Assembly: GCF_054482595.1 (NCBI RefSeq)
Contig: NZ_CM137008.1
Strand: one strand, 5' to 3'
DNA: 64,000 bases
This document shows positions 6,500-52,603 of the stretch, piece by piece (the first letter of the stretch is position 1; each line of letters starts with the position of its first letter). The translations under genes were made by a program, and so were the position numbers. The notes below the pieces were generated by a model that worked only from the letters and a program-made list of their open reading frames with translations, had not been told where the DNA came from and did not search any database.

Positions 6500-7450
6500 T
6501 TATAGTTTGGCGGCAAGAAGATCTTCCAGTTTGCGTTGATCAACGGCGAACAGACGAATGCCTTCAGACAGTTTTTCTACCGCCATCGCATCCTGATTGT
6601 GCTCCCAACGGAACTCCGCTTCGCTCATGGGAGCTGGGCGTGGGAACGTCTGAGAAGGTGGGATTAATTTACGTACCACTGGCGAAACTTTTTCCTGCAG
6701 CTCCTTCAGCAAATTCGGTGCGATAGTCAGTCGATCGCAGCCGGTTAAGGCGAGGATTTGTTCGGTGCGACGGAAGCTCGCGCCCATCACAATGGTTTCA
6801 TAGTGGTGTTGCTTATAGTAGTCGTAGATATTGCGCACCGATTTAACGCCCGGATCTTCTTCCACCACATACGGGTCCATCGGCTTGCGTGCCTGATACC
6901 AGTCATAAATACGCCCGACAAACGGCGAAATCAGAAAAACGCCTGCTTCTGCACAGGCCCGTGCCTGGGCAAAAGAAAACAGCAGCGTCAGGTTGCAGTT
7001 AATACCTTCTTTTTCCAGCTCTTCTGCCGCGCGAATTCCTTCCCAGGTCGAAGCCAGCTTGATCAGAATGCGTGATTTCTCAACGCCTTGTCGCTGATAC
7101 AAGTCCACCAGATGGCGCGCCTTCTCAATACTCTTTTCTTTATCAAAAGAGAGGCGTGCATCAACTTCTGTTGACACGCGACCGGGTACGATTTTGAGGA
7201 TTTCAGCACCGAAATTGACCGCCAGTTTGTCACACGCTGCGACCACCTGTTGTTCCTGGGTCTTGCCATTTTTTTTACCCCAGGCGATAGCATCGTCTAT
7301 TAAATGCTCATATTGTGATAATCCGGCAGCCTTGAGTAACAGCGAAGGATTGGTGGTGGCATCCTGGGGATGATAATGGCGAATGGACTCAATATCGCCG
7401 CTGTCTGCCACGACAGTGGTGAACTGTTTGATGCCGTCTAACTCGTTCAT
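6500..7450 (-). CDS. talA: Transaldolase A
   Basis: 316-aa ORF, classic transaldolase sequence; immediately upstream of tktB on the same strand (talA-tktB operon). Confidence 0.95.
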
Positions 7451-7738
7451 AGGAAATACTCCTTGAAAAGTAAAGTGTTAGATGAGTGCGTTAATTCACA
7501 CTTCTGAGAAATTTCGCTAAACGCATCAAAAAAGCATAGCAGACAGGCATGGTATTGCTGGATTAAGCAGGTAACATCAGTGTTATAGGATTATTACCAA
7601 AACATTATATTAATGGTGAGAGTTTGGACTTGCTCAAAGTCTGTAGACTCCGGCAGGGTAATAATGTGCGCCACGTTGTGGGCAGGGGCTGTTGCCCACA
7701 CACTTTATTTGTGAACGTTACGTGAAAGGAACAACCAA

Positions 7739-10018
7739 ATGGATGACCAGTTAAAACAAAGTGCACTTGATTTCCATGAATTTCCAGTTCCAGGGAAAAT
7801 CCAGGTTTCTCCAACCAAGCCTCTGGCAACGCAGCGCGATCTGGCGCTGGCCTACTCACCAGGCGTTGCCGCACCTTGTCTTGAAATCGAAAAAGACCCG
7901 TTAAAAGCCTACAAATATACCGCGCGCGGTAACCTGGTGGCGGTGATCTCTAACGGTACGGCGGTGCTGGGGTTAGGCAACATTGGCGCGCTGGCGGGCA
8001 AACCGGTGATGGAAGGCAAGGGCGTTCTGTTTAAGAAATTCGCCGGGATTGATGTATTTGACATTGAAGTTGATGAACTCGACCCGGACAAATTTATTGA
8101 AGTCGTCGCTGCGCTCGAACCGACCTTCGGCGGCATCAACCTCGAAGACATTAAAGCGCCAGAATGTTTCTATATTGAACAGAAACTGCGCGAGCGGATG
8201 AATATTCCGGTATTCCACGACGATCAGCACGGCACGGCAATTATCAGCACTGCCGCCATCCTCAACGGCTTGCGCGTGGTGGAGAAAAACATCTCTGACG
8301 TGCGTATGGTGGTTTCCGGCGCGGGTGCTGCAGCAATCGCCTGTATGAACCTGCTGGTGGCTCTGGGGCTGCAAAAACATAACATCGTGGTTTGCGATTC
8401 AAAAGGCGTTATCTATCAGGGCCGTGAGCCAAACATGGCGGAAACCAAAGCCGCATATGCGGTGGTGGATGACGGCAAACGAACCCTCGATGATGTGATT
8501 GAAGGCGCGGATATTTTCCTCGGCTGTTCCGGCCCGAAAGTGCTGACCCAGGAAATGGTGAAGAAAATGGCTCGAGCGCCAATGATCCTGGCGCTGGCGA
8601 ACCCGGAACCGGAAATTCTGCCGCCGCTGGCGAAAGAAGTGCGTCCGGATGCCATCATCTGTACCGGCCGTTCCGACTACCCGAACCAGGTGAACAACGT
8701 CCTGTGCTTCCCGTTTATCTTCCGTGGCGCGCTGGACGTTGGCGCAACCGCCATCAACGAAGAGATGAAACTGGCGGCGGTACGTGCGATTGCAGAACTG
8801 GCCCATGCGGAACAGAGTGAAGTGGTGGCTTCTGCGTATGGCGATCAGGATCTTAGCTTTGGCCCTGAATACATCATTCCAAAACCGTTTGATCCGCGTC
8901 TGATAGTCAAGATTGCTCCTGCGGTCGCGAAAGCGGCGATGGAGTCGGGCGTGGCGACGCGTCCGATTGCTGATTTCGACGTCTACATCGACAAGCTGAC
9001 TGAGTTCGTTTACAAAACCAACCTGTTTATGAAGCCGATTTTCTCCCAGGCTCGCAAAGCGCCGAAGCGCGTAGTTCTGCCGGAAGGGGAAGAGGCGCGC
9101 GTTCTGCATGCCACTCAGGAACTGGTAACGCTGGGACTGGCGAAACCGATCCTTATCGGTCGTCCGAACGTGATCGAAATGCGCATTCAGAAACTGGGCT
9201 TGCAGATCAAAGCGGGCGTTGATTTTGAGATCGTCAATAACGAATCCGATCCGCGCTTTAAAGAGTACTGGACCGAATACTTCCAGATCATGAAGCGTCG
9301 CGGCGTCACTCAGGAACAGGCGCAGCGTGCGCTGATCGGTAACCCGACAGTGATCGGCGCGATCATGGTTCAGCGTGGGGAAGCCGATGCAATGATCTGC
9401 GGTACGGTGGGCGATTATCATGAACATTTTAGCGTGGTGAAAAATGTCTTTGGTTATCGCGATGGCGTTCACACCGCAGGTGCAATGAACGCGCTGCTGC
9501 TGCCGAGTGGTAACACCTTTATTGCCGATACATATGTTAATGATGAACCGGATGCAGAAGAGCTGGCGGAGATCACCTTGATGGCGGCAGAAACTGTCCG
9601 TCGTTTTGGTATTGAGCCGCGCGTTGCTCTGTTGTCGCACTCCAACTTTGGTTCTTCTGACTGCCCGTCGTCGAGCAAAATGCGTCAGGCGCTGGAACTG
9701 GTCAGGGAACGTGCGCCAGAACTGATGATTGATGGTGAAATGCACGGCGATGCAGCGCTGGTGGAAGCGATTCGCAACGACCGTATGCCGGACAGCCCTT
9801 TGAAAGGTTCCGCCAATATTCTGGTAATGCCAAACATGGAAGCTGCCCGCATTAGTTACAACTTACTGCGCGTTTCCAGCTCGGAAGGTGTGACTGTCGG
9901 TCCGGTGCTGATGGGCGTGGCGAAACCGGTTCACGTGTTAACGCCGATCGCATCGGTACGTCGTATCGTCAACATGGTGGCGCTGGCCGTGGTTGAAGCG
10001 CAAACCCAACCGCTGTAA
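7739..10018 (+). CDS. maeB: NADP-dependent malic enzyme (malic enzyme domain fused to a phosphotransacetylase-like C-terminal domain)
   Basis: 759-aa [26 protein letters not shown]...; divergent from talA. Confidence 0.95.
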
Positions 10019-10035: not shown

Positions 10036-10063
10036 CGCTTACCCTGAATATTCAGGGTAAGCG
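10036..10063. terminator. Perfect 13-bp-arm palindrome just downstream of maeB; possible terminator or protein-binding site (no clean U-tract)
   Basis: cgcttaccctgaa-ta-ttcagggtaagcg, 18 nt after the maeB stop. Confidence 0.4.
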
Positions 10064-19116: not shown

Positions 19117-20516
19117 ACACTCGCCAGCTATTGAGCGTCGGTATCGATATCGGCACCACCACCACCCAGGTGATTTTCTCCCACCTGGAGCTGGTTAACC
19201 GTGCGGCGGTGTCGCAGGTGCCGCGCTACGAATTCATTAAACGCGAAATTAGCTGGCAAAGTCCGGTGTTCTTTACCCCTGTCGATAAACAGGGCGGTTT
19301 AAAAGAAGCGGAACTGAAAACCTTAATACTCGAGCAATATCAGGCTGCGGGTATTGAGCCGGAAAGCGTTGATTCTGGTGCCATCATCATCACCGGTGAA
19401 AGCGCGAAAACCCGCAATGCTCGCCCGGCGGTGATGGCGCTCTCTCAGTCGCTGGGCGATTTTGTCGTTGCCAGCGCCGGGCCGCACCTCGAATCCGTGA
19501 TCGCCGGTCACGGAGCCGGGGCACAAACCCTTTCTGAACAACGGCTGTGTCGGGTACTGAATATCGACATCGGCGGTGGCACCGCGAACTACGCCCTGTT
19601 CGATGCCGGAAAAATCAGCGGCACCGCCTGCCTCAACGTCGGTGGTCGCCTGCTGGAAACCGACAGCCAGGGGCGCGTGGTTTACGCTCATAAACCGGGG
19701 CAGATGATTGTGGATGAGTGCTTCGGTGCAGGCACTGACGTCCGTTCGCTGACCGGCGCGCAGCTGGTGCAGGTTACCCGGCGGATGGCAGAACTGATTG
19801 TCGAAGTGATTGACGGAACGCTCTCACCGCTCGCGCAGGCATTGATGCAAACCGGTTTGCTGCCCGCAGGTGTTACGCCCGAAATCATTACGCTTTCTGG
19901 CGGCGTGGGCGAATGTTATCGCCACCAGCCCGCCGACCCGTTCTGTTTTGCCGATATTGGCCCGCTGCTGGCAACGGCGCTGCATGACCATCCGCGCCTG
20001 CGTGAGATGAACGTACAGTTTCCGGCGCAAACCGTGCGCGCCACGGTGATTGGCGCGGGCGCGCATACCCTTTCGCTCTCTGGCAGCACAATCTGGCTTG
20101 AGGGCGTACAACTGCCGCTGCGCAATTTGCCGGTGGCGATCCCGATTGATGAAACGGATCTGGTGGGTGCCTGGCAACAGGCGCTGATTCAGCTGGATCT
20201 TGATCCCAAAACTGACGCGTACGTGCTGGCGCTTCCCGCCTCGCTGCCTGTGCGTTACGCCGCGGTACTGACGGTCATCAACGCGTTGGTCGATTTCGTC
20301 GCGCGTTTTCCGAATCCGCATCCCCTGCTGGTGGTGGCCGGGCAGGACTTTGGTAAAGCTCTGGGCATGTTGTTGCGCCCACAGCTACAACAACTCCCGT
20401 TGGCAGTCATTGACGAAGTGATTGTCCGCGCGGGGGACTATATCGACATTGGTACGCCTCTTTTTGGCGGATCGGTTGTGCCGGTGACGGTGAAATCACT
20501 CGCATTTCCTTCCTGA
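19113..20516 (+). CDS. eutA: EutA, reactivating factor for ethanolamine ammonia-lyase
   Basis: 467 aa; GTG start overlapping the eutH stop (GTGA). Confidence 0.9.
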   Translation: MNTRQLLSVGIDIGTTTTQVIFSHLELVNRAAVSQVPRYEFIKREISWQSPVFFTPVDKQGGLKEAELKTLILEQYQAAGIEPESVDSGAIIITGESAKTRNARPAVMALSQSLGDFVVASAGPHLESVIAGHGAGAQTLSEQRLCRVLNIDIGGGTANYALFDAGKISGTACLNVGGRLLETDSQGRVVYAHKPGQMIVDECFGAGTDVRSLTGAQLVQVTRRMAELIVEVIDGTLSPLAQALMQTGLLPAGVTPEIITLSGGVGECYRHQPADPFCFADIGPLLATALHDHPRLREMNVQFPAQTVRATVIGAGAHTLSLSGSTIWLEGVQLPLRNLPVAIPIDETDLVGAWQQALIQLDLDPKTDAYVLALPASLPVRYAAVLTVINALVDFVARFPNPHPLLVVAGQDFGKALGMLLRPQLQQLPLAVIDEVIVRAGDYIDIGTPLFGGSVVPVTVKSLAFPS

Positions 20517-52408: not shown

Positions 52409-52469
52409 ATCGCAGATAGCAAAAAAGCGCCTTTAGGGCGCTTTTTTACATTGGTGGGTCGTGCAGGAT
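52409..52469. repeat. 61-bp perfect direct repeat of the lysV 3' end plus downstream terminator region (second copy at 52565-52625)
   Basis: Identical 61-mer atcgcagatagcaaaaaagcgcctttagggcgcttttttacattggtgggtcgtgcaggat at 52409-52469 and 52565-52625; includes the last 18 nt of tRNA-Lys. Confidence 0.75.
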
Positions 52470-52575: not shown

Positions 52576-52603
52576 CAAAAAAGCGCCTTTAGGGCGCTTT
52601 TTT
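52576..52603 (-). terminator. Rho-independent terminator of the valU-valX-valY-lysV tRNA operon
   Basis: On the minus strand: aaaaagcgccctaaaggcgctttttt immediately after tRNA-Lys. Confidence 0.6.

Follow-up and report, generated by a model that had tools for sequence, protein, structure and literature searches.

A transcribed hairpin in the 5' leader of Escherichia coli maeB

The talA-maeB region and the transcription starts of maeB

The window, that is, the whole stretch of 64,000 nucleotides analyzed here (contig NZ_CM137008.1), carries in the divergent region between talA and maeB, part of the E. coli core genome, a perfect inverted repeat of the form TGTGGGCA-N8-TGCCCACA at 7677-7700 of the plus strand (Table 1). 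On rereading the sequence, we found this repeat to be exactly as given in a preliminary description of the locus, and the distance of about 40 nt to the maeB start codon stated there proved to be 38 nt, the ATG lying at 7739. The description also had a T-rich stretch following the repeat. Such a stretch is present, but it is interrupted (TTTATTTGTG) and set off from the stem by CAC; the sequence directly 3' of the 3' arm is CACTTTATTTGTG, and the stretch around the whole repeat reads ...cgccacgtTGTGGGCAggggctgtTGCCCACAcactttatttgtgaacgttacgtgaaaggaacaaccaaATG.

A 401-nt query across the region was matched at 95% identity or more by 5424 of the 5426 complete E. coli genomes, with flanks annotated as maeB and tal (talA). 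The annotation of MG1655 agrees on both flanking genes, and a direct comparison showed positions 7451-7800 of the window to be identical to that strain. Window positions (w) and positions in NC_000913.3 (g) were interconverted by g = 2578377 + (7739 - w), a relation that was checked directly.

Table 1. Coordinates of the features of the talA-maeB region in the window
Feature	Position	Strand	Basis or remark
talA (annotated tal/talA) CDS, divergent neighbor	6500-7450	-	ORF list, E. coli annotation
Upstream maeB TSS	7585	+	NC_000913.3 2578531; Yan 2018 supplementary files 3 and 4, second sheet
Upstream maeB TSS	7599	+	NC_000913.3 2578517; Yan 2018 supplementary files 3 and 4
Upstream maeB TSS	7618	+	NC_000913.3 2578498 (Yan 2018, M9 sheet); NC_000913.2 2576520 (Kim 2012)
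Conserved box CTCAAAGTCTG (TTCAAAGTTTG in other genera), -35 region of P1	7633-7643	+	Alignment, upstream sequences
P1 -10 hexamer AATAAT	7660-7665	+	Conservation; mapped TSS 8 nt downstream
uORF, 16 codons (MCATLWAGAVAHTLYL), through the hairpin	7664-7714	+	Only in transcripts from upstream TSSs
P1 TSS (A)	7673	+	NC_000913.3 2578443; Yan 2018 SMRT-Cappable-seq, second sheet
5' arm tgtgggca	7677-7684	+	
Spacer ggggctgt (8 nt)	7685-7692	+	
3' arm tgcccaca	7693-7700	+	
Conserved leader block (CAC)TTTATTTGTGAACGTTACGTGAAAGGAAC, including the T-rich stretch and the Shine-Dalgarno AAGGAA (7726-7731)	7701-7733	+	
maeB CDS, NADP-dependent malic enzyme, 759 aa	7739-10018	+	ORF list, RefSeq annotation under match

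Every maeB start mapped in MG1655 lies upstream of the hairpin, which is therefore contained within the maeB leader, where the preliminary description had placed it; neither of the two independent data sets (Yan 2018, and Kim 2012 as far as its accessible part goes) has a maeB start downstream of the repeat. In Yan 2018, 62 reads start at 7673, the start of the promoter that we call P1, and 37 of them end at the maeB 3' end (2576049), while another 62 start at 7585, 21 of which end at the maeB 3' end. The start at 7618 has 52 reads in the M9 sheet of Yan 2018; Kim 2012 gives it 611 reads and a leader of 121 nt, and the flanking sequence supplied there ends at window position 7618. Counted along the mRNA, the hairpin occupies +5 to +28 of the P1 transcript and +60 to +83 of the 7618 transcript. 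On the other side of the divergent region, Yan 2018 places the talA-tktB start at 2578589 (w7527).

A further maeB start has been mapped at 7199, inside talA and antisense to it, which brings the maeB starts to at least four or five. Their use seems to be condition-dependent, with 7618 appearing in the M9 sheet of Yan 2018 and both 7673 and 7585 in the second sheet. A maeB entry was also sought in the supplements of the ROSE and Cappable-seq papers, and the accessible parts of these supplements held none.

P1 (TSS 7673) is the only maeB promoter conserved across the genera of the Enterobacterales. Its -10 hexamer follows the consensus NATAMT at the same position from Escherichia to Pectobacterium and Photorhabdus, being AATAAT in E. 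coli, GATAAT in Salmonella and Citrobacter, GATACT or CATACT in the Enterobacter group, and TATACT in Pectobacterium and Photorhabdus. Before any TSS data were consulted, the hexamer had led us to predict a start at about 7672, one nucleotide from the mapped position. The conserved box in the -35 region is unlike TTGACA and may hence be an activator site. This box (TTCAAAGTTTG/CTCAAAGTCTG) is preceded by GAGAGTTTGG (7620-7643) and is kept from Escherichia to Mangrovibacter; in Brenneria, Acerihabitans, and Photorhabdus, it takes the form TTCATAGTTT or GTCAAAGTTA.

Fold of the hairpin and its alleles within E. coli

As RNA, the repeat is predicted to form a stem of nine pairs, eight of them Watson-Crick and the ninth a G-U closing a 6-nt loop, with five G-C pairs among the nine and a folding energy of -14.3 to -16.5 kcal/mol. 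The RNA structure prediction called for by the preliminary description thus returns a stem-loop in both mapped transcripts (from P1 and from 7618), in which seven Watson-Crick pairs form with a probability of about 1.0 (0.99-1.0) and the eighth, the outermost U-A, with one of about 0.75. Compared with shuffled sequences, the fold has a z-score of -1.5 in a 46-nt context; when the P1 mRNA is taken from its start over 45 nt, the z-score is -2.2. The window gives 42 hits (about 22 distinct loci) for perfect inverted repeats of 8 bp spaced by 3-10 nt, versus 8.8 +/- 3.1 in dinucleotide shuffles. The hairpin alone is not clearly beyond chance and, since repeats of this size are common and the z-scores modest, further evidence is needed before it can be called functional.

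A search of positions 7000-8200 with the covariance models of Rfam 15 found only two chance-level hits (E values of 1.3 and 8.9), neither overlapping the hairpin; the Rfam IS128 hit at 7439-7525 scored 13 bits against a gathering score of 80. The possibility of a small RNA between 7618 and about 7711 was rejected as well, there being no Term-seq 3' end and no Rfam match for it.

Within the species, the sequence of 7650-7738 recurs unchanged in 3424 of 5425 E. coli records, and the stem is intact in about 90%. The exception is G7682A, a B2-type allele that turns a central G-C pair into an A.C mismatch and is carried by 557 of the 5425 records (about 10%), among them E2348/69, Nissle 1917, and the type strain ATCC 11775. 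It abolishes the advantage of the fold over shuffles (z -0.25). Between the window, which has the K-12 allele, and the B2 strain E2348/69, this stem-breaking SNP is the sole difference over 7560-7745, and the natural one-base allele offers a ready-made test of whether the stem has any effect. In RMDEC465, the most divergent E. coli record examined, C7696T replaces a G-C pair by G-U, so that pairing is kept, and is accompanied by an indel in the loop, while O157 and several other examined strains have a SNP at 7656, outside the hairpin. With one disruptive and one conservative change in the stem, this variation is not informative about selection.

A comparative transcriptome found the maeB transcript to be higher in B2 than in A/D strains (PMC10580932). 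However, ppsA, fbp, and glpX rise alongside maeB in the B2 strains of the same study (PMC10580932); the comparison is therefore confounded, and a global gluconeogenic shift is a simpler cause of the difference than the allele of the stem.

Conservation of the leader among the Enterobacterales

We compared the region among at least 17 orthologous loci of the Enterobacterales, together with loci reached through exact TalA proteins, which belong to E. fergusonii, Salmonella enterica (two loci), C. koseri, C. sedlakii, and C. amalonaticus. Three blocks are conserved in the alignment, namely the TTCAAAGTTTG box of the -35 region, the -10 hexamer together with GTGCG, and a T-rich/ACGTGAAAGGAAC block. 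The spacer that runs from the P1 start to the last of these is hypervariable and rich in indels, and it contains the whole of the E. coli hairpin. The leaders of Salmonella, Citrobacter, and Enterobacter lack the hairpin although the flanking blocks are conserved, as does that of E. fergusonii, the closest sister species compared, in which the T-run is missing too. In agreement with this, E. coli alone has significant structure in the first 45 nt from the P1 start (z -2.2, and -1.8 in the divergent RMDEC465). Leclercia and one Enterobacter have marginal structure there (about -1.75), and E. fergusonii, Salmonella, and five Citrobacter leaders range from z -0.4 to +1.9. These comparisons show the hairpin to be a recent gain of the E. 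coli lineage, located in a hypervariable spacer of the leader and polymorphic within the species.

The conserved elements of the maeB leader are accordingly the T-rich and ACGTGAAAGGAAC blocks and not the hairpin. The leader block reads TTTTTGAnCGAnACGTGAAAGGAAC in Salmonella, Citrobacter, and Enterobacter, with or without a hairpin before it. This block (7704-7733) is far better conserved than the hairpin; it contains the Shine-Dalgarno (SD) sequence and probably also the CsrA site, and its U-rich part may serve as an element of the S1 or Hfq type.

Two further structures were examined in these leaders. A terminator-like hairpin common to the genera was discarded: the short GC stems before the T-run that had suggested it on inspection of Salmonella and Citrobacter place their 5' arms in the promoter discriminator, upstream of the +1 of P1, and are no better than shuffles (z -1.0 to +1.1). 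None of the leader segments tested in this way was more structured than its shuffles in any genus (z -1.0 to +1.1). The second structure, an alternative pairing of three segments, CACCC/GGGTG/CACCC, in the Enterobacter group, was not significant and is absent from Escherichia.

Possible roles of the hairpin

maeB, a well-studied gene of central metabolism, is known to be controlled allosterically as well as by ArcA and CsrA. Repression by ArcA is direct (PMC3798270). A GFP fusion to the maeB leader is repressed by CsrA, for which a site is predicted in the SD region (PMC6028588), and the maeB mRNA is stabilized in csrA51 (PMC4844966). The maeB leader is thus an experimentally supported CsrA target (PMC6028588, PMC4844966), as are the leaders of the glgC type, but its candidate CsrA sites, the SD AAGGAA and AUGGAU at the start codon, are at least 25 nt downstream of the hairpin. 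The hairpin itself was rejected as a CsrA-binding structure, its loop being GGGGCUGU, or AGGCUGU in RMDEC465, in either case without GGA. With REP/BIME elements it shares only the character of a short, GC-rich palindrome in an E. coli intergenic region. Unlike them, it is single-copy, stands in a 5' leader instead of between convergent genes or within an operon, and lacks the REP consensus; an 89-nt query was found at a median of one place per genome, which led us to discard a repeated element.

RNA polymerase transcribes through the hairpin into maeB, since capped full-length reads cross it, and their 3' ends lie about 48 nt beyond the maeB stop codon (Yan 2018). This read-through weighs against the leader attenuator suggested in the preliminary description. 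As an attenuator or pause element, the hairpin and the U-rich stretch would stop or pause some transcripts before maeB, possibly in conditions that were not sampled. The hairpin does resemble Rho-independent leader attenuators such as thrL and leuL (the latter annotated in Yan 2018 as b0075) in that a GC-rich stem-loop of a 5' leader has T-rich sequence after it, and a simple consensus scan marks it as terminator-like. However, its U-tract is interrupted and offset by CAC, the tail of the stem being CACUUUAUUUGUG, with no U run within 0-2 nt. The T-score is accordingly 0.79 and the d'Aubenton-Carafa-type score -44.9; four terminator-like hairpins elsewhere in the window reach 3.8-4.4 and +10 to +28, respectively. 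Moreover, the T-rich stretch is conserved whatever lies before it, hairpin or none, and the hairpin differs from thrL and leuL in lacking a peptide with regulatory codons, an antiterminator, and conservation. Neither an alternative antiterminator structure, a conserved leader peptide, nor any other sensing device was found, and no Rfam family matched. As to 3' ends, the Term-seq data of Adams 2021, covering three conditions, include no maeB entry and no 3' end within 2578300-2578599 on either strand. Products of about 90-125 nt from the 7618 and 7585 starts should be detectable by this method, although products of less than about 50 nt could be missed, and a terminated P1 product, at only about 35-40 nt, could escape both the Term-seq and the SMRT libraries. 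The larger amount of maeB mRNA in B2 strains, whose stem is weakened (PMC10580932), would also fit attenuation. Considering all of this, attenuation or pausing at the hairpin seems highly improbable.

Two variants of termination were tried as well and abandoned. The uORF that runs through the hairpin has a start codon made up of the end of the -10 hexamer plus G, with AGGG 6 nt upstream of the ATG. Its length, sequence, and stop vary across the genera, and it is absent in Leclercia and Mangrovibacter; a leader-peptide attenuator was rejected because the uORF is not conserved and starts upstream of P1. A terminator on the minus strand was dismissed because the stem has no T-run following it on that strand.

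The preliminary description had alternatively proposed a binding site for a regulator, in which case the 24-bp dyad at +5 to +28 of P1 would be bound by a transcription factor, in the form of a dimer, that represses maeB transcription or acts as a roadblock to it. A perfect 8-bp dyad symmetry just downstream of +1 is in a position typical of repressor operators, and the B2 allele breaks the dyad and B2 strains have more of the maeB transcript (PMC10580932), although this correlation is confounded as described above. We found no positive evidence for such a site. About 10% of the E. coli records have a broken palindrome, and E. fergusonii, Salmonella, and Citrobacter lack it although they share the promoter and leader blocks around it. 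In RMDEC465, C7696T breaks the symmetry of the DNA yet keeps the pairing of the RNA. The literature searched contains no report of a transcription factor bound at this site. ArcA, the documented direct regulator, recognizes TGTTA direct repeats, a sequence other than the dyad. The 64 kb hold one other related site, at 20360-20383 (TCTGGGCATGTTGTTGCGCCCACA), which has the pattern of the hairpin with 2 mismatches and is within chance expectation, at least two matches being obtained in 4 of 100 shuffles. An operator is therefore very unlikely. It is also very unlikely that the hairpin is a negative cis-element, for instance a site of pausing or early release or an operator for an undescribed repressor, with G7682A acting as a cis-eQTL that contributes to the higher maeB expression and gluconeogenic bias reported for B2 strains.

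What we are left with has the appearance of an ordinary hairpin in a leader and not of a regulatory switch. We tentatively read it as a stem-loop close to the 5' end, specific to the lineage, that stabilizes the mRNA modestly at most, and give this reading a probability of about 0.4. In the P1 mRNA, the hairpin would follow a single-stranded 5' tail of 4 nt (the four terminal nucleotides are unpaired with a predicted probability of 0.87) and, if it has any effect, would act as a structural cap near the 5' end that modestly slows 5'-end-dependent decay through the entry of RppH and RNase E, as in ompA. Such stabilization would be limited to P1 transcripts, the hairpin being internal (+60 or more) in those from the other three starts, while regulation through the leader would be carried by other elements (the multiple promoters, ArcA, and CsrA at the SD region). 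Emory, Bouvet, and Belasco reportedly found in 1992 that a 5'-terminal stem-loop with few unpaired 5' nucleotides stabilizes E. coli mRNAs of the ompA type, and a tail of 4 nt is at the limit of the protection reported. A stable hairpin a few nucleotides from a primary 5' end is indeed what P1 transcripts have, and they alone. As with the stem-loops of the ompA type, the polymerase reads through it and it lies upstream of the ribosome-binding site without overlapping it; unlike them, it has a borderline tail, is internal in three other transcripts, is not conserved beyond E. coli, and is broken in B2. The accessibility of the SD AAGGAA was 0.70 with the hairpin, 0.64 with the B2 allele, and 0.70 after deletion of the hairpin in silico. 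Since accessibility is unchanged, the hairpin behaves as an autonomous module that does not gate the initiation of translation. For a gene controlled in so many other ways, it would add at most a minor, lineage-specific tuning of mRNA stability.

It is equally likely that the hairpin is a neutral by-product, created by a chance or templated (quasi-palindrome) mutation in a fast-evolving spacer and transcribed without any measurable effect on maeB. Much of the evidence bears on both readings. The hairpin sits inside the sole hypervariable segment between conserved blocks and is missing in the sister species E. fergusonii as well as in Salmonella and Citrobacter (five leaders), which argues against a stabilizer and for neutrality, as does an allele with an A.C mismatch in the stem that is fixed in about a tenth of the E. 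coli records, Nissle 1917 and the type strain among them. In B2 strains, the maeB transcript is up, the opposite of what the loss of a stabilizer predicts, although here too the comparison is confounded (PMC10580932). Repeats of 8 bp are not rare by chance, with about nine per 64 kb in the shuffles; on the other hand, the window has about 2.5-fold more inverted-repeat loci than the shuffles, so that most of them are not due to chance. That deletion in silico leaves the SD as accessible as before is also what a neutral hairpin would give. Against neutrality stand the intact stem of about 90% of the E. coli records and the change in RMDEC465, which preserves the structure through a G-U pair and thereby favors the stabilizing reading; besides, a stable hairpin 4 nt from the 5' end is physically expected to affect 5'-end-dependent decay to some extent.

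Other palindromes were noticed in the window. A perfect 11-bp palindrome, GCTTACCCTGAATATTCAGGGTAAGC, is found at 10037-10062, 19 nt past the maeB stop codon. The 3' end mapped by SMRT-Cappable-seq (2576049, about w10067) is 5 nt beyond it, and neither strand has a T-run; from its sequence and position, the palindrome appears to be a non-canonical terminator or a hairpin that protects the 3' end. Two identical terminator-like hairpins, AAAAAGCGCCTTTAGGGCGCTTTTT, are located at 52422-52446 and 52578-52602, 156 nt apart and each followed by TACATTGGTG, and they appear to form a locally duplicated unit.
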